A stretch of 64,000 nucleotides of DNA from Candidatus Elulimicrobium sp. (GTDB lineage: Bacteria; Patescibacteriota; Minisyncoccia; Phycocordibacterales; UBA918): the NCBI GenBank assembly GCA_020720815.1, contig DYNY01000004.1:1783-65782 (forward strand), given 5' to 3'. The notes under the pieces are model-generated. The model ran no database searches and was not told the origin of the DNA. It worked only from the letters and a program-made list of their open reading frames with translations. Positions 38 through 59,201 of the stretch are shown here, in pieces. The translations under genes were made by a program, and so were the position numbers. Position 1 is the first letter of the stretch. Every line of letters begins with the position of its first letter.

Positions 38-160
38 AATAGCGGCGAAGCAAACCAAAAAATCCTTTCCTTCATTTCTTTCGCCTTGCGGCGGGGGGGT
101 CTGGGGGGAGCCGCAAAAAATGATAAGGATTTTTTGGGTTTGCTTCGCCGTTTCAGTCTC
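38..160. repeat. Structured ~120-nt repeat, copy 1. A long imperfect hairpin (about 44-149) has a 24-bp outer stem, an inner 7-bp stem and a G-rich apical loop (ggcgggggggtctggggggag).
   Basis: 5' arm ggcgaagcaaaccaaaaaatcctt pairs with 3' arm aaggattttttgggtttgcttcgcc. About 80% identical to a second copy at 2622-2742. Confidence 0.6.
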
Positions 161-494
161 CGAAAAGAGCAATCTTATTTTAACATTTTTGTTTGCTCTT
201 TTCTCCACCCTCACGGCGACCGAGGCGCTCTCGTATCCGCACTTAGTGGTAACGCTAACGTCCGCGAACCACACACAATCGCCTCCGCATAGCCCGCTCG
301 CATTCGCTCGCGCTGGCTGCTTCAGCGTTCTGTGTGTTCACTCGGTAACTTCGAGAGAGTGTGATGGTGACTCAAAGAATAATGGATTGTGCTAAAGCAC
401 AAACAAATCTGTATGTGCTTGACCCGCCCTCCCGTTCGCGCACAACAATCCCCATCGTTTTTAGAAGATATTATAAAAGGATGGGGATTGCTCC

Positions 495-1535
495 CTATTT
501 CTTTAGGGTCATCTCCATCTCTCTGAACCAAAACAAAATTTCTTCTTTTTTCAAAATTATGCCAATTGCAAGTGTCAGTCTTTTCTGCAAAAACCTATGT
601 AATGCTTTAGGAAATTTTTGTTTTTTTAGTTCGGCATTTTTGTAAAGAAGAAATAAGAAAAGATCGATATAGTATATTGGCAACAACTTTTCTGCCTCTC
701 GTCTTAACTTGACAGTACTAGCAGTTTTACCAAAGTAAGTCTTCAAAATTAAAACCTTCTCGTCTTCTGTTAGTTTTCTTCCCAAAGTAAACTGATAGAT
801 AAAATCCATTAGTAAGTAGGCAACATCATGCATTGGGTTTCCTATTACTGATGTTTGCCAATCTACCAAATACCAGTGGTTTTTATGCAAAAAATTCTCT
901 GGAAATGGATCGTGATGAATAACCGATTTCCCAGACAGTAAATCTGTAACTGTTGCCAAGTATTTTCTGTATATGTCTTTTTTTTCAAAAAATATTTTTT
1001 CTATATCACCACCTTTGTTTGACGAAATACTTTTTAGTCGCTGATTATAAAGTTTTGACTTCCTACTCTCATCTGCATCAATGCTAAAAATTTTTTGGGC
1101 ATCTTTTGTTACTTTGACCTTGTGTAGTTTCTTTACAGTTTCTACAACCCCTGAAAAGTCAGAATCGACCTTTGAGCTATCGTGAGCAATGTATTCCTCA
1201 ATGAGAAACTCAAAAGGAAAAAACTTTTTACTTGTATCAACAAAGTATACTTTTGGGGTTATTTCGTAGCTCTCCAAGAATTTCAGTACTTGGTATTCGT
1301 TCTTTATACTTATTACATTTCCTGTATACCAATCTTTATCTTTCCAAAAATTGAAACGCATTATCAATTTTTGACCATCTTTAAAAGTAAGAAGATAGTT
1401 TGCATTTGCTAGTCCTTTGCCAATTTCTTTTACTACTTTGAGTTTCGGCAACCCTATCAAAAAAGTATTTTTTGGATGGGGTTGTTTGGCAAAGAAATGT
1501 TTTATCTGTTTAATCGGAATCATGTTTGAAATCAC
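495..1535 (-). CDS. Aminoglycoside/choline-kinase-like phosphotransferase (APH fold kinase)
   Basis: 346 aa. Catalytic loop HHDPFPENFL (HxDxxxxN) and metal-binding LVDWQ (DWE-like) motifs typical of the APH/ChoK kinase family. Last gene of a 3-gene minus-strand operon. Confidence 0.55.
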   Translation of the reverse strand: MISNMIPIKQIKHFFAKQPHPKNTFLIGLPKLKVVKEIGKGLANANYLLTFKDGQKLIMRFNFWKDKDWYTGNVISIKNEYQVLKFLESYEITPKVYFVDTSKKFFPFEFLIEEYIAHDSSKVDSDFSGVVETVKKLHKVKVTKDAQKIFSIDADESRKSKLYNQRLKSISSNKGGDIEKIFFEKKDIYRKYLATVTDLLSGKSVIHHDPFPENFLHKNHWYLVDWQTSVIGNPMHDVAYLLMDFIYQFTLGRKLTEDEKVLILKTYFGKTASTVKLRREAEKLLPIYYIDLFLFLLYKNAELKKQKFPKALHRFLQKRLTLAIGIILKKEEILFWFREMEMTLKK

Positions 1536-2338: not shown

Positions 2339-2536
2339 TTATTTTAATAATTCCTCCATTGGAACGCCTAACGATTTTGCGATTTTTTGAATTGTCTGAA
2401 CGCTTGGTTTTGTAACTACACCACCCTCAATTTTTGTAAGGGTAGAGTATTTGATATTGGCTTTTTTCGCCAAGTCGTCTTGCGTTAAACCCTGTTTTGT
2501 TCGCACTCGTTTTATGTTCTGTGATATAGTTGCCAT
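2339..2536 (-). CDS. XRE-family helix-turn-helix transcriptional regulator
   Basis: 65 aa. The segment QGLTQDDLAKKANIKYSTLTKIEGG is a classic Cro/C1 HTH. The stop lies 1 nt from the phosphatase start. Confidence 0.75.
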   Translation of the reverse strand: MATISQNIKRVRTKQGLTQDDLAKKANIKYSTLTKIEGGVVTKPSVQTIQKIAKSLGVPMEELLK

Positions 2537-2621
2537 AGTATGCTACTTTTGATAGTATAGAAATATGAGTCATCACTTTCTTTGCTCACAAAACAAGCAT
2601 AGCAAAAATAGTGATATTTTT

Positions 2622-2742
2622 CAAATAACGGCGAAGCAAGACCAAAAATTTCCTTTCCATTTCTTTTTCCGCTTCGCGGTGGAGGGGTGGGGGGAGGAGA
2701 CGCGAGAAAAATGCAAGGAAATTTTTTGGTTTTTGCACACGC
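2622..2742. repeat. Structured ~120-nt repeat, copy 2. It is degenerate: the outer stem is eroded while the inner stem and G-rich loop are retained.
   Basis: Aligns with copy 1 (ggcgaagcaa.accaaaaa..cctttcc...catttcttt..cgc.t.gcgg..ggggt.ggggggag). The inner stem carries compensatory substitutions relative to copy 1. Confidence 0.6.
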
Positions 2743-2867
2743 GAGTCCGCGAGCGTGTCCGAGGCGCATTGGTTCGCATCACCACGCAATCGGAGCGTAC
2801 GAGGCAGTTTCAAGCCACCACGCGCTCCGCGCGTGCGAAGTGGGTTCGAGCAAAGGTTAATACATCA

Positions 2868-2983
2868 CCGCAGAAAGAAACTTCCGAATCCGAAAGGTGG
2901 GAAGAAGCCCGCGCCGAAGGCGCGGGAGTGGGCAAAAGAGCCCGTCGCTTCGCGACGAATTGGGACGGGACGGGTGTGGCGAA
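2868..2983. repeat. 116-bp inverted repeat, left copy (IR-L), GC-rich
   Basis: Exact reverse complement of 4430-4545. Imperfect similarity continues for about 16 more bp (2984-3000 vs 4413-4429). Confidence 0.9.
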
Positions 2984-3022
2984 ATGCGCGAATTTGTCTC
3001 TTGTTTCGTATCTAAAAGCAAT

Positions 3023-4675
3023 ATGAATATCAAACCAAAATATTTTCTATACGCGCGAAAATCGTCGGAAGATGACGACCGACAAGTGATGTCTATTGAG
3101 GCACAGCTTTTTGAACTGCGAGAATTGGCGCGTAAAGAAAGTCTTGAAATTCTTGAGGAATTTCAAGAGTCGAAAAGCGCAAAGACACCGGGGCGCGAGG
3201 TGTTCGGTGAAATGTTCGCGAAAATTGAGAAGTTAGATGGTGTTGGCATATTGGCGTGGCATCCCGACCGCCTCGCACGTAACAGTATTGACGGTGGACG
3301 AGTAATTTACGCCGTAGACACTCGCAAGGTTGTGTCTTTGCGCTTTCCGACATTTTGGTTTGAACCAACCCCGCAAGGGCTCTTTATGTTGCAAGTGGCG
3401 TTCGGGCAATCTAAATATTACTCGGATAATCTATCTGACAATATCAAGCGCGGCATCCGCCAAAAATTGCGACGAGGCGAATGGTTGAATTTAGCTCCCT
3501 TTGGCTACACCAATAATCCGAAGGTGAGAAATATTGAGCCTCATCCGACAAATGCTCGCGTGGTGAAGTTAGCTTTTCAAGAATACGCCAAAGGGTCGTA
3601 TACTTTTGTTTCGCTCGCGCAATTTTTAGCGGACTTGGGCGTGGTGACTCGCAACAAAACGCCACTTGCCAAAGTTTCCATCAAACGGCTTTTGACACAT
3701 CGGGCGTATCTTGGTTTCGTCAAACATGGTGACGAATGGTTTGATGGAAACTTTGAGCCAATTATTTCTCCGCAATTGTTTGAAGCCGTGCAGAAAGTAT
3801 TGCAAACGAAAGACAGGCCGCGCAAAAGGAAAATCAAGCATGATTTTCCTTTCACTGGACTTTTTCGATGTGGCGAGTGTGGCAGTATGATTTCCGCGCA
3901 GTGGGCGACTGGAAAATCTGGTGGTCGCTATCGGTATTATCGGTGCTCGAAAAAGCGCGGCCACTGTTCGCAAGCGTATGTGCAGGAAAGTGAACTTACG
4001 CGGCAAATCTGTGCACGGCTTCAAACAATCTCGCTTTGCGATCGCTATACCGACTGGATGTTGGACAAAGTGAAAATGTGGGAGCGCGAGGAAATTGGAG
4101 CGTCGCAAAGCGAGGTTCAAAATCTTTCTGATGGAATCAAAGCGAACGAGGAGCGCATGGAAAAACTGCTCTCGGCGTATCTTGATGGCGATGTACCGAA
4201 AGAGGTTTATCTCAAACGAAAAGATGTTCTCATGCGCTCTCTCGCCGCTTTGAAGGAAAAAATGAAAGATTTTGAACGCGGAAGAAATAATTGGGTCGAA
4301 CCCTTGCGGAAATGGATTTTAGATACGAAACAAGCCAATTTTTTGTCCTCCTCCTCTGATTTGTACCAAATCAAGTCGTTCGTCCAAAAAATCGGAACGA
4401 ACCCTCTGGTTCGTGACAAATCCGCCCAGTTCGCCACACCCGTCCCGTCCCAATTCGTCGCGAAGCGACGGGCTCTTTTGCCCACTCCCGCGCCTTCGGC
4501 GCGGGCTTCTTCCCACCTTTCGGATTCGGAAGTTTCTTTCTGCGGAGAGAGGGGGATTCGAACCCCCGATTGGGTTTCCCCAATACTACCTTTCCAAGGT
4601 AGCGCGTTCAACCACTCTGCCATCTCTCCATTATTATTTTACTTCAATAAATGTTACTTTAAATTAAATATTTAA
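3023..4675 (+). CDS. Large serine recombinase (resolvase/invertase catalytic domain, recombinase domain, zinc ribbon, coiled coil)
   Basis: N-terminal YARKSSEDDDRQVMSIEAQ serine-recombinase catalytic motif; zinc ribbon CGECG...CSKKRGHC; recombinase domain. Start chosen at ATG 3023 (MNIKPKYF). There is no stop until 4675, so the reading frame runs through IR-R and tRNA-Ser. The C-terminal ~80 aa are probably not biologically meaningful. Confidence 0.8.
   Translation: MNIKPKYFLYARKSSEDDDRQVMSIEAQLFELRELARKESLEILEEFQESKSAKTPGREVFGEMFAKIEKLDGVGILAWHPDRLARNSIDGGRVIYAVDTRKVVSLRFPTFWFEPTPQGLFMLQVAFGQSKYYSDNLSDNIKRGIRQKLRRGEWLNLAPFGYTNNPKVRNIEPHPTNARVVKLAFQEYAKGSYTFVSLAQFLADLGVVTRNKTPLAKVSIKRLLTHRAYLGFVKHGDEWFDGNFEPIISPQLFEAVQKVLQTKDRPRKRKIKHDFPFTGLFRCGECGSMISAQWATGKSGGRYRYYRCSKKRGHCSQAYVQESELTRQICARLQTISLCDRYTDWMLDKVKMWEREEIGASQSEVQNLSDGIKANEERMEKLLSAYLDGDVPKEVYLKRKDVLMRSLAALKEKMKDFERGRNNWVEPLRKWILDTKQANFLSSSSDLYQIKSFVQKIGTNPLVRDKSAQFATPVPSQFVAKRRALLPTPAPSARASSHLSDSEVSFCGERGIRTPDWVSPILPFQGSAFNHSAISPLLFYFNKCYFKLNI
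4430..4545. repeat. 116-bp inverted repeat, right copy (IR-R)
   Basis: Exact reverse complement of 2868-2983. Its right end overlaps the 3' end of tRNA-Ser by 3 nt. Confidence 0.9.
4543..4629 (-). tRNA. tRNA-Ser (anticodon GGA), type II with a long variable arm
   Basis: Reverse complement reads GGAGAGA..CTACCTTGGAAAGGTAG..GGGGGTTCGAATCCCCC..TCTCTCC-G. Acceptor 7 bp, anticodon loop TTGGAAA, T-arm GGGGG/CCCCC, discriminator G. CCA is not encoded. Confidence 0.85.
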
Positions 4676-4715: not shown

Positions 4716-5780
4716 CTATAATCGGACATCGTCTATCAATTTAATAATATTTTGTAGAGGCCAAGCAATAGAAAACATGTAGTCTGAAATATTTTCATCA
4801 CTTATATGTTCAATTGTCTGATTCATTTTTATATTGTCATCAGGATAAAGAATATATAAGCGATTTTTTATGAATGACAAGCGAATATTAGTATTCTTTC
4901 CTTTCCACCACTCATACAGATCTCGCATAAAATCTGGAGTCAAAATATAGCGTGTTTCCAACTCATTATCGGTAGTTACATGCAATAGATTTTCAAAATC
5001 ATTCCACTCCAGCACAGTTTCTCTAACCTCTGATTTTTCTTTATTATTAAAAAGTCCTATATCTATATCCATATTTTTCTTCTTTTCAGTCGTAATAAAA
5101 GTTTTGCTATGTAAATCATTCTTTAAATCAAAAATAACAAAATAACCATGAAATATATTATTTGTTTGCAGATTCTTTCCATTACCAGTCACATGTTTCG
5201 TATAAAGCTCGACTATTTTGATAAAAGAATTGTTGTAGTTAATTTTAAGGACATTATCTACCTGATTAGTGTTATGTGGTTCTCTAATTAATTCTGAACT
5301 TTCAAGATCTGCCAAAGCCGAAACAAGCTCTGGGGTTTCGTTTATTTTCGCATACAAGAAAAGCTCTTGCCAGACTGTTAATTCTTTATTGCTAGATTGT
5401 ACCTCTTCTTTTACTACACTACCATTTAACGTAAGGAGTGCTAGTACGCGTTTAAAAATAATTTCATTTACTCCTGCATTATACTGCCTTATTATTTTTA
5501 GTTTTCCAGAAAAATATCTAAAGCCAAACTTCAATCCAAAGAAAAATAACCCGGCCCAAATAATTACTAAAACTGTATTTTCGTTGATAACAACCAGTAG
5601 ATAGGACGACATGAAAGACAGCACTAACAATAATATGCCCTGTTTCTGCTCATTCCTTGCTCGCAAATATTCCGTCTCTAATTCCCCGATTGCCGATCTA
5701 ATTTCAGCCATAATTCTAGCCGAATCATTTGAAATTTTTTCTTTTAGTCCTATTGACTCGCTTATTTCACTTGTTTTCAT
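4716..5780 (-). CDS. Hypothetical membrane protein (two N-proximal TM helices followed by a soluble domain)
   Basis: 354 aa ORF with a hydrophobic stretch LLLVLSFMSSYLLVVINENTVLVIIWAGLFFFGL. Sits next to the lemA/htpX cluster. Confidence 0.4.
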   Translation of the reverse strand: MKTSEISESIGLKEKISNDSARIMAEIRSAIGELETEYLRARNEQKQGILLLVLSFMSSYLLVVINENTVLVIIWAGLFFFGLKFGFRYFSGKLKIIRQYNAGVNEIIFKRVLALLTLNGSVVKEEVQSSNKELTVWQELFLYAKINETPELVSALADLESSELIREPHNTNQVDNVLKINYNNSFIKIVELYTKHVTGNGKNLQTNNIFHGYFVIFDLKNDLHSKTFITTEKKKNMDIDIGLFNNKEKSEVRETVLEWNDFENLLHVTTDNELETRYILTPDFMRDLYEWWKGKNTNIRLSFIKNRLYILYPDDNIKMNQTIEHISDENISDYMFSIAWPLQNIIKLIDDVRL

Positions 5781-5783
5781 ATC

Positions 5784-6683
5784 TTATCGCCCCATCTCCC
5801 GTAAAATACGGATTCTGTCTTCGGCTGGTGGGTGAGTAGCAAAAAGTCCATTGATTTTTTGTCCAATTGATCTCTTTCCGCCTACACTATATGGGTCAGC
5901 AATAAACAAGTGGGCGGTAGCGTGTGAGACACGGCGTAGAGGTTGATGATTTTGGGAAATTTTTTCTAACGCTGAAGCTAGACCTTCTGGGTAGCGAGTT
6001 AAAAGAGCAGCTGAGGCATCAGCTAAGTATTCGCGCTTACGTGAAATAGCGAGTTGAATCATCTGAGCAGCAATCGGAGCGAGAATAATTCCAGCGATAC
6101 CAAGAATGAGAAATAAAGGATTGCGCTCTCTATCACTATCACCACCAAACATCAAGGCGCGAGAAAGAAAGTCTGCCAAAATAGCTACAAAACCAGCCAG
6201 CACCACTGCCACAGTCATAACCAACATGTCGCGATTACCAATATGTGACAGTTCATGAGCCATCACACCTTCCAGTTCATTTTTATTAAGCAAGGCCACT
6301 AAGCCGGTGGTGGCTGCTACTACCGCATGCTCAGGATCCCTGCCAGTCGCAAAAGCATTTGGTGATGGGTCATTTACTAGATAAATCTTCGGCGTTGGTA
6401 AGCCAGCGGTAATCGAAAGATTTTCAACAATATTATAGAGCTCTGGCGCCTCTTGTCTTTCTACCGGCTTAGCACCAGTCATACTAAGTACTAATTTATC
6501 AGAAAACCAATAGCTACCAATATTCGTCATTATAGCGAAAATCACCGCTAGATAAAGAATACTTGAGTCATTTAAATACCAACTAACCACATAACCAATA
6601 GCTATCACGGCTATCAAAAAAGAACCCATCAGGAACCAAGTCTTCCTGATATTACTATCTTGTTGTGTGTAAAGTGTGGCCAT
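5784..6683 (-). CDS. htpX: Zinc metalloprotease HtpX (peptidase M48B)
   Basis: HELSHIGNRD HExxH motif, N-terminal TM helices, 299 aa. Confidence 0.85.
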   Translation of the reverse strand: MATLYTQQDSNIRKTWFLMGSFLIAVIAIGYVVSWYLNDSSILYLAVIFAIMTNIGSYWFSDKLVLSMTGAKPVERQEAPELYNIVENLSITAGLPTPKIYLVNDPSPNAFATGRDPEHAVVAATTGLVALLNKNELEGVMAHELSHIGNRDMLVMTVAVVLAGFVAILADFLSRALMFGGDSDRERNPLFLILGIAGIILAPIAAQMIQLAISRKREYLADASAALLTRYPEGLASALEKISQNHQPLRRVSHATAHLFIADPYSVGGKRSIGQKINGLFATHPPAEDRIRILREMGR

Positions 6684-44293: not shown

Positions 44294-44385
44294 AAGTTTA
44301 TTATATCTCTTTCTGTACTTTTGCTAAGTCTATGCGAAATTAGATAAGCATTACATTAACGCTCTTCGTGCTACGTACGAGTTTG

Positions 44386-44456
44386 CTGGGGTACAAGGAC
44401 TCGAACCTCGATAGGCGGTACCAGAAACCGCAGTCCTACCATTAGACGATACCCCA
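44386..44456 (-). tRNA. tRNA-Gln (anticodon CUG)
   Basis: Reverse complement reads TGGGGTA-TC-GTCT-AATGGTA-GGAC-T-GCGGT-TTCTGGT-ACCGC-CTAT-CGAGG-TTCGAGT-CCTTG-TACCCCA-G. All stems pair. Confidence 0.85.
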
Positions 44457-59116: not shown

Positions 59117-59201
59117 GCCTCGGTGGCGGAATTGGTATACGCGCACGACTCAAAATCGTGTATCGCAAGGTGTGAGGGTTCGACCCCCTCCCGAGGCACC
59201 A
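59117..59201 (+). tRNA. tRNA-Leu (anticodon CAA), type II, CCA encoded
   Basis: GCCTCGG..CACGA-CTCAAAA-TCGTG..long variable arm..GAGGG-TTCGACC-CCCTC-CCGAGGC-A-CCA. Confidence 0.85.

Follow-up and report, generated by a model that had tools for sequence, protein, structure and literature searches.

An inverted-repeat pair beside tRNA-Ser(GGA) is probably part of an integrated large serine recombinase element from a large Patescibacteria family

Background

Patescibacteria (CPR) are tiny-celled bacteria with genomes of about 1 Mb, in which few mobile elements have been recognised and gene exchange is poorly understood. In the DNA analyzed here, a stretch of 64,000 nucleotides from Candidatus Elulimicrobium sp. 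(the window), a gene for a large serine recombinase (LSR) is bracketed by a long inverted repeat (IR), one arm of which adjoins a tRNA-Ser(GGA) gene. To which kind of structure does this repeat belong? The original prediction, made from the window alone, had offered three answers: an invertible DNA switch, a transposon bounded by inverted repeats and inserted at tRNA 3' ends, and an integration scar. We compared the locus with related loci of Patescibacteria and examined these answers together with further ones.

Results

The inverted repeat and the recombinase gene in the window

The two arms, located at 2865-2998 and 4415-4548, are 134 nt long, 97% complementary and separated by 1416 nt. They bracket the recombinase gene as originally described, and their perfect 116-nt part (2868-2983 against 4430-4545) was recovered at the same coordinates. 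Mismatches between the arms occupy 4 positions in the window and reach 14% at other loci. A second block of 23 nt (3000-3022 against 4312-4334, 91% complementary) indicates that the repeat formerly extended up to the start codon of the recombinase gene. About 80 nt between the two blocks are extra in the right arm and absent from IR-L; one of the terminator-like hairpins sits in this additional DNA (Table 1), and on transcripts begun at the tRNA it is predicted to end read-through. The GC content is 0.61 in the repeat, 0.54 in the adjacent module X, 0.46 in the recombinase gene and 0.41 in the window; the earlier estimate of about 60% for the repeat holds, whereas the 38% given for the genome was slightly low. 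No second copies of the IR or of the outer half of X occur elsewhere within the 64-kb window, and the sequence is therefore not a common dispersed repeat, a case that the original prediction had taken into account. The perfect repeat enters the acceptor stem of tRNA-Ser(GGA) by 2 nt, plus the discriminator. Thus, the repeat does adjoin the tRNA as predicted, but it does not end precisely at the discriminator base, its overlap with the gene being 3-6 nt.

Table 1. Features of the element and of its tRNA target in the window
Feature	Coordinates	Strand	Evidence or comment
Partial diverged copy of the X inner palindromic hairpin module	38..150	.	77% identity to 2624-2735
N module, GC-rich, non-coding, structured, at the far end of the cargo segment	153..496	.	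Conserved
Cargo: APH-type phosphotransferase, 346 aa	495..1535	-	PF01636, E = 7.5e-16
Cargo: histidine-phosphatase-superfamily protein, 275 aa	1510..2337	-	PF00300, E = 5e-8
Small Cro/CI-type HTH protein, 65 aa	2339..2536	-	PF01381, E = 5e-17
Divergent promoter-like sites	2530..2624 (plus 2530-2558; minus 2624-2596)	.	Consensus scan only
X module: inner palindromic hairpin and outer ~35 nt	2627..2867	+	95-97% identical to X of L002, L006, L014
Core/crossover region (TCACCGCA) of the internal attP-like site s2	2865..2872	+	Predicted
IR-L	2868..2998	+	Predicted P'-arm side of internal attP-like site s2; structured 5' leader of the recombinase gene
Large serine recombinase (LSR) ORF	3023..4675	+	PF00239, PF07508, PF13408; no stop before 4675
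Terminator-like hairpin with T-run, just inside IR-R	4397..4414	-	Consensus scan
IR-R	4415..4545	-	Predicted P'-arm side of attL-like junction s3 (tRNA/IR)
Two terminator-like hairpins in IR-R	4454-4472 and 4517-4532	plus	Consensus scan
tRNA-Ser(GGA), integration target	4543..4629 (start 4542/4543)	-	Mature tRNA sequence remains intact

All three domain profiles that had been suggested for the recombinase match the protein. The resolvase domain PF00239 (E = 5e-21) covers residues 8-154 and includes the motif YARKSS at residues 10-15; PF07508 (E = 6e-14) and PF13408 (E = 4e-11) follow C-terminal of the catalytic domain. The protein combines a serine-motif catalytic domain with recombinase and zinc beta-ribbon domains over a length of at least 469 aa and is a member of the LSR group. 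The nearest solved relatives are the SPbeta and A118 integrases (identity of 28% or less), and the homologues number more than 5000 related protein clusters.

The reading frame was confirmed to run without a stop through IR-R and the tRNA gene, as the original prediction had stated. In the AF2 model (pTM 0.33), helices at residues 340-360, 362-387 and 393-418 are followed by a beta hairpin at 461-470, and the pLDDT is below 50 for most of residues 470-550. According to this model, the folded protein would end at about residue 470 (position 4430 or so), the remaining tail being probably disordered. The first part of this tail is coded within IR-R, up to position 4545; the rest, including the stop codon, comes from the tRNA gene read in antisense. 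In the integrated state, the ORF thus spans the attachment site and takes its stop codon from host DNA. The frame through the IR is open in 60 of 61 loci for the recombinase frame, compared with 43 and 34 of 61 for the other two. As a remote possibility, the tail might switch with the state of the DNA, being encoded by X' in a circular or flipped form and by the tRNA antisense strand after integration; if so, it might be a built-in state sensor.

Architecture of the element family

Of 80 related Patescibacteria loci, 65 have the IR pair around the LSR gene, and the arms are again 1416 nt apart. A second repeat pair, X'/X, is present in 25 loci; its copies are mostly 97-100% identical, and the pair abuts IR-L or overlaps it by a few nucleotides. 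Read along the plus strand, a canonical element has the order host flank, core', X', a segment with N, cargo and the HTH gene, X, core, IR, the recombinase segment, IR', core' and the tRNA (minus strand). This order creates three junctions: (i) s1, between X and the host flank, (ii) s2, between X and the IR, and (iii) s3, between the tRNA and the IR. The junctions share only the last few tRNA bases, and in Ser-type relatives CCGC(A) is all that the three have in common. Hybrid junctions with a short shared core are met in relatives such as L002, L006, L016, L019, L039-L041 and L069-L071, and in the tandem arrays of L017 and L013 different modules are joined exactly at the core. Family-wide conservation around the core is limited to about 35 + 15 nt, and within X to its last ~35 nt.

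In every informative locus, IR-L is preceded by X, the HTH gene and cargo, and in none does it abut host DNA. IR-L is therefore internal to the element and not a transposon end. The idea of a transposon bounded by the IR was correct about targeting of tRNA 3' ends but not about IR-L as an element end, and a mere integration scar is not in line with a structure that is conserved and maintained across a large family.

Identities of the X and IR pairs are uncorrelated within loci (100/91% in L071, 92/100% in L077 and 79/74% in L050). An LTR-like origin, with both repeat pairs made in one event, was considered and is weakened by this lack of correlation.

The window observation corresponds to half of the full structure, the X'/X pair and the three-junction logic having been beyond the reach of the original prediction. 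Junctions visible in the window are s2 and s3 only. The core TCACCGCA at s2 is shared by the tRNA end (4541-4548, minus strand TCTCCGCA), and the outer ~35 nt of X form a P-arm-like half-site (..GGGTTCGAGCAAAGGTTAATACATCA) that ends in bases matching the tRNA 3' end. The loci whose X copies are 95-97% identical to that of the window (Table 1) belong to other hosts. At the left end of the window, AT-rich DNA (1-37) precedes a segment that aligns with X in direct orientation (105 of 138 positions identical) and has the same G-rich loop. This segment was rejected as a canonical inverted X' copy, since it is directly oriented and represents only the diverged hairpin module. The outer half of a left X copy and the s1 site are absent from the 64-kb window; the left copy may be truncated or may belong to an array reaching past the window.

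The N module is 83-84% identical to segments of L006 (2800-3169) and L017 (1970-2351). Hairpins are conserved in it, and its indels have lengths not divisible by 3. The phosphotransferase gene has a host-like GC content, and an exact look-up of its protein returned no recorded match. The cargo segment begins with the HTH gene, which is divergent from the recombinase gene; this first position is conserved, as 14 of the 20 loci with a match have a homologue there. One promoter-like site (plus strand) points to X, IR-L and the recombinase gene, the other (minus strand) to the HTH gene.

Across the family, elements are small (about 4-7 kb) and cargo-carrying, and each codes for its own LSR. The cargo includes transporters, an aromatic amino-acid lyase, a cytochrome d1-domain protein, a GTP cyclohydrolase II fusion, restriction-modification and Abi-like genes. 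A scan of one genome per species gave at least 561 confirmed matches. Several copies per genome are frequent, and very similar elements occur across many Patescibacteria classes. No phage or conjugation genes are present in the element, and no candidate for a directionality factor other than the HTH protein was found among its genes. A search for relatives in viral contigs was likewise empty, and a phage or satellite origin is therefore without support.

tRNA genes as integration targets

Targeting of tRNA 3' ends by the element family is strongly supported. The 3' end of a tRNA or tmRNA gene of one of many kinds adjoins the outer IR arm in 62 cases, including the window; in these cases the tRNA or tmRNA is convergent and its 3' end lies 111-122 nt beyond the end of recombinase homology. 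In its final 5-8 nt, X co-varies with the terminal bases of its target: CCGCA for Ser, TCACA for Glu and Pro, GCACA for Arg, Gly and Leu, CCAC for Ala and tmRNA, and GGACA for Lys. In different hosts, elements with IRs 98-100% identical to each other adjoin Ser-GGA, Ser-GCT, Ser-CGA and Arg-ACG tRNAs, which are themselves only about 70-75% alike.

Element-free 36-nt 3' ends of tRNA-Ser(CGA), followed by AT-rich trailers, were found in L085, L088, L089 and L090, all in other host backgrounds. All four contigs sharing the host flank of L082 (L082 included) are occupied. An all-against-all comparison of host flanks returned arrays and one rearranged tRNA-Ser/tRNA-Glu neighbourhood, with no strain-matched empty site among them, and the tRNA 3' end of the window itself gave 0 matches as a query in the metagenome scan.

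Proposed model of integration

We consider it probable that the IR of the window is part of an integrated LSR element of this family, organised as follows. The LSR would recombine an attP-like site of about 55 bp with an attB site formed by the 3' end of the tRNA together with its natural trailer. In the putative attP-like site, the core is joined on one side by the final ~35 nt of X and on the other by ~15 nt from the start of the IR; the crossover would take place inside the final tRNA nucleotides. Under this model, s3 would correspond to attL and s1 to attR, and the three junctions s1, s2 and s3 fit the expected attR/attP/attL pattern. The assignment of half-sites is predicted from conservation and geometry. 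The zinc-ribbon domain is proposed to read the T-loop motif GTTCG, because the distance between this motif and the core is 5-6 bp greater in X than it is in the tRNA. Such a displacement was observed in 33 of 40 loci, and the remaining 7 were provisionally attributed to a second motif match; the published shift of the zinc-ribbon motif between attP and attB is 5 bp (PMC3783163).

Together with s1 and s3, the element would retain a second intact attP region, inverted and placed between its two unique segments; IR-L is a likely part of this retained copy at s2. IR-L/IR-R and X'/X would then be the arms of a duplication of the attP region. As the arms exceed the length of a binding site, they presumably have additional roles, and covarying hairpins, the 5' leader of the recombinase gene, terminators between the gene and the tRNA, and the open-frame protein tail are the candidates. 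Homologous recombination most probably accounts for the likeness of the arms and for occasional segment flips. Two points count against the model: LSR elements described so far are not known to have or to require a second attP in their interior, and two equivalent attP copies would not lead one to expect the strong orientation bias described below.

Orientation of the recombinase segment and alternative explanations

The recombinase segment exists in both orientations beside the same tRNA: between samples, L082 and the loci L084, L086 and L087 share a host flank identical over 1855 nt and a 100% identical recombinase segment that differs in orientation. This observation speaks for a programmed inversion switch, in which the 1.4-kb segment would be flipped at the repeats, either by the recombinase of the element or by a host system. 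A recombinase gene co-directional with and downstream of the tRNA promoter would be ON, a gene facing tRNA read-through would be OFF, and the switch would control excision and integration activity. The minority state is also seen in L092 and L034, L058 has its cargo segment in flipped orientation, 9 of 120 homologue tails show X' after IR', and the promoter-like and terminator-like sites obtained by consensus scan suit orientation-dependent expression. However, the tRNA-side arm is the same in both orientations, and the breakpoint is therefore not at the core shared with the tRNA, which is the sole site in the arms where exchange would follow att logic. The X-side arm of L082 derives from a different element type, which makes this locus a recombinant rather than a simple flip, and the clean minority loci have diverged arms (86-87%), suggesting old, locked events. 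Moreover, about nine in ten loci have one orientation (in the genome set, about 62 loci against 1), and serine integrases are reported to be inactive on att pairings except attP x attB (PMC3783163). The original suggestion of an invertible segment was right in that both orientations exist but does not fit as stated, and the locus does not have the small invertase and short sites of a Hin/Gin-type switch. We regard a programmed switch as unlikely.

A smaller chance is given to a fold-back mechanism, in which a single strand of the integrated element, supplied by natural transformation (uptake by a competent CPR cell) or by replication, folds back so that X' pairs with X and IR' with IR. The ends of the element would meet on the internal copy, trimming and ligation would rebuild an integration-competent circle, and the LSR would then insert this circle at a tRNA end. 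The geometry fits exactly, as each half of the internal copy has its reverse complement in one of the two outer half-copies, and these meet at the core. The high identity of the arms (usually 97-100%), the lack of directionality, conjugation and phage genes and of viral relatives, the spread of very similar elements over many classes and a presumed reliance of Patescibacteria on DNA uptake all count in its favour. If true, it would mean horizontal transfer without excision, directionality factor, phage or conjugation, and both inverted-repeat pairs would be transfer machinery rather than a by-product. However, with identities uncorrelated between the two pairs, independent gene conversion is a better fit than regeneration in one event, flaps would have to be removed precisely, and loci with flipped segments are left without explanation. 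Still less probable is an autonomous insertion sequence made of the IR-bounded recombinase gene alone, with 134-bp terminal inverted repeats and insertion at tRNA 3' ends, X-cargo-X' being a separate element or host DNA. The repeats do bracket the recombinase gene exactly, and the outer end of one arm is the tRNA junction. This explanation is opposed by the conserved X end before every informative IR-L, by the co-conservation of X, the HTH gene and N with the recombinase in unrelated hosts, and by the fact that a conservative serine recombinase acting on two inverted ends inverts the intervening segment and does not excise it. An assembly artefact (a collapsed or misjoined repeat), foreseen in the original prediction, could be suspected from the many related contigs that break at or near the repeats and from the chimeric paths that graph walks through a repeat can yield, L081 being perhaps one of them. 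Against this, the 65 loci with the same structure come from independent assemblies of many studies and assemblers, including the closed chromosomes CP060229.1 and OY970382.1, and the arms differ from each other, which marks them as distinct copies; the chance of an artefact is close to negligible.

Hairpins in the repeat

Structure of the IR was assessed by per-sequence z-scores and by pair counts on hand-defined hairpins. The mean folding z-score is -2.4 (61 loci). The covariation analysis of the hairpins gives 78.6% paired, compared with 27-44% in slid controls, and none of 500 shuffles reaches the observed value. RNAalifold applied to a MAFFT alignment of the 61 IRs returned no consensus structure, because the hairpins shift in register. 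The hairpins show no strand preference (36 G-U against 33 A-C pairs), and RNA and DNA, or the two strands, are therefore not distinguishable as the level at which they act. Rfam 15 contains no family matching the IR, X or N at gathering or permissive thresholds (best other E about 0.35), and the tRNA is the sole feature that reaches threshold.

Discussion

Relation to phage-type integrases and serine-recombinase transposons

The element shares with phage-type large serine integrases (A118/LI, SPbeta SprA, phiC31 and Bxb1) the same set of resolvase, recombinase and zinc-ribbon domains; the structural model has long helices where a coiled coil would be expected. Its hybrid, attL/attR-like junctions around a short core also agree with these systems, as does the position of the motif, which lies farther out in the element site than in the target site. 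In contrast to them, the element (i) targets the extreme 3' ends of many tRNA and tmRNA genes and no single protein-coding gene, (ii) is only 4-7 kb in size and has no phage genes, (iii) retains an intact, inverted attP-like copy flanked by 134- and 245-bp repeats, and (iv) has a recombinase ORF that crosses the attachment site and ends at a host-supplied stop. Serine integrases that target tRNAs are, to our knowledge, rare. With Tn4451/Tn5397-type LSR transposons and IS607 the element has in common a small size and a serine recombinase as the sole mobility enzyme. IS607 uses a small serine recombinase, and we know of no long terminal or internal inverted repeats and no targeting of tRNA ends in either group. 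Our literature searches gave no description of the element, which is apparently an undescribed variant of LSR integrative elements; neither the retained inverted attachment site nor the host-supplied stop codon of the recombinase was found described in the literature.

The family may be a main vehicle of gene flow in a large part of the bacterial tree, with cargo that matters for the minimal cells of Patescibacteria. It also represents an LSR clade with a simple target rule, which combines a few-base match to the end of a tRNA with a T-loop-like motif. For genome engineers, landing sites at universal tRNA genes would be of interest.

Relation to tRNA-associated islands, invertases and the 2-micron plasmid

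The original prediction had rightly seen that the locus is not a classical tRNA-integrating island with direct repeats. In elements of the tycheposon type, the partial tRNA copies are arranged as direct repeats, with the crossover located inside the tRNA. The present element differs from tycheposons in its use of an LSR, in a crossover of a few base pairs at the very end of the tRNA and in its inverted repeats. Tycheposons of Prochlorococcus resemble it in being small and cargo-carrying, in docking at tRNA and tmRNA genes, in forming tandem arrays and in residing in streamlined genomes; they also carry varied metabolic or defence genes, are flanked by partial tRNA copies when integrated, and in 474 of 501 cases have a tRNA-associated tyrosine recombinase (10.1101/2020.12.28.424599).

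Likeness to the Hin/Gin/Cin systems consists in a serine recombinase gene inside an IR-bounded segment that is found in both orientations in nature. The element is unlike these systems in having an LSR, 134-nt arms and breakpoints off the shared core, and its flip leaves coding and promoter fusions unchanged, apart from the DNA on either side of the recombinase gene. Hin, Gin and Cin are small invertases of about 190 aa that act on 26-bp sites with a Fis-bound enhancer.

The excised form predicted by our model would be a circle similar to the yeast 2-micron plasmid (FLP/FRT), with two long inverted repeats and two unique segments, one of them coding for the recombinase. FLP belongs to the tyrosine recombinases, and the plasmid itself is a nuclear episome of a eukaryote. 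Unlike this plasmid, the element is known in integrated form only, and no replication gene is known from it. L081, in which cargo, U, recombinase and U' follow each other with a 100% identical inverted repeat of 399 nt, was considered as a circular form and rejected, because all k-mers of its path also occur in integrated states. The predicted junction of the circle would have the same sequence as s2.

Structure of the element and its predicted attachment sites

The recombinase gene bracketed by inverted repeats constitutes only half of the whole structure. A second inverted pair, X' and X (150-300 nt, mostly 99-100% identical), encloses 1.1-4.1 kb of cargo in the 25 loci with enough upstream DNA, and X abuts the left arm (IR-L) of the repeat around the large serine recombinase (LSR) gene or overlaps it by 3-10 nt. 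The plus-strand order is host flank (H'), core', X', (conserved non-coding N module, cargo, HTH gene), X, core, IR, (recombinase), IR', core', tRNA'. Side-by-side alignment of the X/host-flank (s1), X/IR (s2) and tRNA/IR (s3) junctions revealed that (i) s1 and s3 have in common only the final 4-5 nt of the tRNA, and (ii) s2 is composed of the left half of s1 and the right half of s3. As judged from these sequences, s1, s2 and s3 would correspond to attR, attP and attL, respectively, with an intact attP-like site retained inside the element in inverted orientation.

Variation in the final 5-8 nt of X follows the target tRNA (bases in common at the end: CCGCA for Ser; TCACA for Glu and Pro; GCACA for Arg, Gly and Leu; CCAC for Ala and tmRNA; GGACA for Lys). 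Across 38 loci, X is strongly conserved only over its last ~35 nt, TCGAAATAGGTTCGCGCAAAGGTTAGTATTTC, and the conserved part of the repeat covers ~15 nt, RAnnGAAACTTC; together they form a predicted site of ~55 bp, which matches a serine-integrase attP in size. In 33 of 40 loci, GTTCG in X lies 5-6 nt farther from the core than GTTCGA of the tRNA T-loop, and the remaining seven were provisionally attributed to a second motif match. In attP, the zinc-ribbon motif is located 5 bp farther from the centre than in attB (Rutherford et al., PMC3783163). If the T-loop GTTCGA is read as this motif, a single recombinase clade could use many tRNAs as well as tmRNA.

Modules of different elements meet exactly at the core in the arrays L017, L013, L022, L018 and L074. 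In these tandem arrays, IR' of one element abuts the next X', sometimes of another X type (..ATTCGAACTTTGTCC..), and some units have no recombinase. HTH-bearing cargo units may thus pile up behind one recombinase, a little as in an integron.

The copy in the window

The repeat search of the window yielded inverted arms of 134 nt with 97% complementarity, spaced by 1416 nt, and confirmed the perfect 116-nt repeat of the original prediction. An additional 23-nt inverted block (91%) indicates that the left arm formerly extended up to the recombinase start codon; between its two repeat blocks, the right arm holds ~80 surplus nt. The placement of tRNA-Ser(GGA) means that the perfect repeat takes in the discriminator and the final two acceptor-stem bases. 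The recombinase frame has no stop before its predicted end, and the profile search that had been suggested for its product matched all three domains (see table). Neither the repeat nor the outer half of X recurs elsewhere in the 64-kb window, which argues against a common dispersed sequence, the case that the original prediction had set against itself. GC content is 0.61 in the repeat, 0.54 in X, 0.46 in the recombinase gene, 0.36 in the cargo and 0.41 in the entire window.

Coordinates of the features in the window and in related loci (L handles)
Feature	Locus	Position	Remark
Inverted arms	window	2865-2998 / 4415-4548	
Perfect repeat	window	2868-2983 / 4430-4545	
Leader/3'-coding complementarity (in the window, the 23-nt block)	window	3000-3022 / 4312-4334	
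	L034	4962-4995 / 6295-6328	
LSR ORF	window	3023-4675	Resolvase, Recombinase, Zn_ribbon_recom
tRNA-Ser(GGA)	window	4542/4543-4629	minus strand; ARAGORN and Rfam
Terminator-like hairpin, tRNA direction	window	4414-4397	
Start of X	window	2627	
Left hairpin module	window	38-150	direct orientation
N module	window	153-496	GC-rich, non-coding
	L006	2800-3169	
	L017	1970-2351	
tRNA-Gln(CTG); tRNA-Leu(CAA)	window	44385-44456; 59117-59201	
Arms	L086	3265-3400 / 4816-4951	
Distant LSR	L083	11204-12794	39% aa identity
tRNA-Ser(CGA)/tRNA-Glu(TTC) neighborhoods	L006	6520-7144	
	L008	1802-2567	
	L054	4863-5795	
	L082	66-1728	

The window copy, overall 92-93% identical to loci L002, L006 and L017, is canonical on its right side, from X through the tRNA. 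A canonical X' is not present on its left side, which has only the inner palindromic hairpin module of X (77% identity), preceded by AT-rich DNA resembling the stretch upstream of X. Locus L062 is arranged similarly, with an HTH gene left of the hairpin module. The window copy may be the final unit of an array whose neighbour has lost its recombinase, or it may have been truncated on the left. The 64-kb window contains no second recombinase copy, and no elements lie beside its other two tRNA genes.

Read as its reverse complement, the stretch immediately before the recombinase start codon matches the codons for ..WILDTKQ.. close to the 3' end of this gene. The 5' leader of the recombinase mRNA could thus base-pair with 3' coding sequence of the same transcript. 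The recombinase gene of L034 is devoid of ~28 codons that in the window separate the ..WILDTKQ.. block from the repeat.

Distribution and tRNA targets

The recombinase has more than 5000 relatives with 65-95% identity, and among those that have a source name, nearly all bear the label of Patescibacteria or of a lineage within it. The nearest phage and plasmid integrases are at most 28% identical, and no relatives were found among 2.9 million viral contigs. A scan of one genome per species gave at least 561 confirmed matches; the census covers the 80 loci listed. An inverted pair of 110-152 nt surrounds the recombinase gene in 65 of these, usually with a spacing of 1416 nt and arm identity of 97-100%. 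Decayed pairs are few (L050 at 74%, six more at ~90%), and in the other 15 loci, one arm is mostly cut off where the contig ends.

In 62 cases, including the window, the 3' end of an opposite-strand tRNA or tmRNA lies 111-122 nt beyond the end of recombinase homology, and thus coincides exactly with the outer end of the repeat; most distances fall into two classes, 113 and 122 nt, that differ by 9. Ser tRNAs are targeted most often (27 cases with four anticodons), followed by those for Glu (17), Arg (8), Ala (3) and Leu (2), and by single Gly, Val, Lys, Pro and tmRNA genes. Repeats 98-100% identical to that of the window adjoin Ser-GCT, Ser-CGA and Arg-ACG tRNAs, themselves only ~70-75% identical to the tRNA of the window; thus, the element is much younger than its host contexts. 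Several MAGs and genomes contain two copies at different tRNAs, among them the complete genome CP060229.1 with L039 and L050.

To search for the empty sites at tRNA-Ser envisaged in the original prediction, metagenomes were scanned for the last 36 nt of one tRNA-Ser(CGA) that serves as a target, and eight contigs were returned. Four of these (L085, L088, L089 and L090) suggest that such ends can be unoccupied: the identical tRNA end leads into an AT-rich native trailer, and no element is present. L084, L086 and L087 are occupied and share the host flank of L082. The unoccupied sites belong to other host backgrounds than the occupied ones, and no strain-matched empty site was found by host-flank comparison.

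An identical tRNA-Ser(CGA) 3' end in L083 is occupied, at the equivalent position and in the same orientation, by a distant LSR that has a GC-rich, hairpin-rich spacer of its own; the habit of targeting tRNA ends thus predates the 65-95% identity clade and reaches beyond it. The element also occurs in MAGs whose labels name other phyla (L058, Candidatus Methylomirabilis sp.; L013 and L018, Bdellovibrionales; P0039, Deltaproteobacteria), for which binning contamination is more likely than a true host range. The neighbouring tRNA-Ser(CGA) and tRNA-Glu(TTC) genes vary in relative order and orientation among related hosts, with the element at either tRNA, and a homologue of the L006 flank gene is inverted on the opposite side in L008, which suggests that the chromosome has been inverted locally near tRNAs that carry an element.

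Contents of the long arms

The 61 repeats outfold their dinucleotide shuffles on either strand (mean z-score -2.4; 97% of values below 0). In a MAFFT alignment that took no account of structure, the pairing of two hairpins holds in 78.6% of cells versus 27-44% with slid partners, and double-sided changes number 88 versus 31 in shuffles, the observed value being reached by 0 of 500. G-U and A-C counts in the hairpins are equal (36 versus 33) and favour neither strand. Read in the direction of recombinase transcription, IR-R holds two terminator-like hairpins, and another lies immediately inside the arm in the tRNA direction.

The recombinase frame is open across the entire arm in 60 of 61 loci (the other two frames are open in 43 and 34), and its stop codon is located in the tRNA antisense or farther downstream. 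The last folded element in the AF2 model comprises residues 461-470, and pLDDT is below 50 over most of 470-550; the tail is probably disordered. When X' follows IR', the ORF terminates 14-20 codons on, within the element, and the predicted attachment site would fall inside its 3' end.

Inversion of segments and comparison with known systems

The proposal that the recombinase segment is an invertible switch holds as far as both orientations exist. Identity between L082 and L086 is 100% both in the 1855 nt that cover host flank, tRNA and tRNA-side arm and in the unique recombinase segment, which nevertheless is inverted between them; L084 and L087 share this flank and are oriented like L086. 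A second clean minority-state case is L092 (tRNA, IR, recombinase pointing away from the tRNA, IR', X'), and a third, L034, is the only one among the 80 genome loci listed. The cargo segment is flipped in L058. Among homologue tails of 120 cluster representatives, 54 finish in tRNA antisense (..GIRT..) and nine in X' (..FART..). Tested as a Hin-type switch, the element did not qualify. The tRNA-side arm is the same in both states, so the exchange occurred within the inner repeat rather than at the att core; L082 has an X-side arm of another, L015-like element type (18-20 mismatches) and is therefore a recombinant; and the arms are just 86-87% alike in both clean minority-state loci. Given these three features, we do not read the flips as Hin-like site-specific switching; they are probably occasional homologous recombination between the arms.

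The recombinase belongs to the LSR family, as all three defining domains are present, and the element probably shares the working logic of serine-integrase integrative elements. Its ecological behaviour is like that of tycheposons, which use tyrosine recombinases (10.1101/2020.12.28.424599). The predicted transposon bounded by inverted repeats was not borne out by the tests for transposons with terminal inverted repeats. A fold-back splint, with the ends of a single strand aligned on the internal copy, is an improbable reading; the element may also be read as a 2-micron-like episome. Four features distinguish it from all compared systems: (i) its LSR targets tRNA and tmRNA 3' ends, (ii) an inverted attP-like copy is kept, giving two invertible segments, (iii) the arms would have several simultaneous roles, and (iv) the host supplies the stop codon of the recombinase gene. 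A full-text literature search found no description of such an element.

Hairpin loops within the repeats can be reversed independently. The loop of the left X hairpin module in the window is reversed relative to the expected X', and the L086 arms differ chiefly by an inverted P2 loop (CGAAGG versus CTTCAG), which suggests template switching or cruciform-type events inside the palindromes.

Cargo genes and the N module

The small Cro/CI-type HTH gene is usually next to X and transcribed divergently from the recombinase, and the genes beyond it are highly variable. The window encodes an APH-type kinase and a histidine phosphatase. Relatives carry a GTP cyclohydrolase II-methyltransferase fusion, an aromatic amino-acid lyase, a three-gene ABC transporter, a sodium:solute symporter, a DNA methylase, an AAA_15 (Abi/OLD-like) ATPase, a 2-hydroxyacid dehydrogenase, a cytochrome d1-domain protein, or an EcoRI-like methylase with a GmrSD/HNH protein. 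The conserved N module closes the cargo segment at its distal end; candidate identities are an ncRNA, a terminator block and an origin. Its hairpins are conserved, its indels are not multiples of 3, and its central part is missing in L002 and L026.
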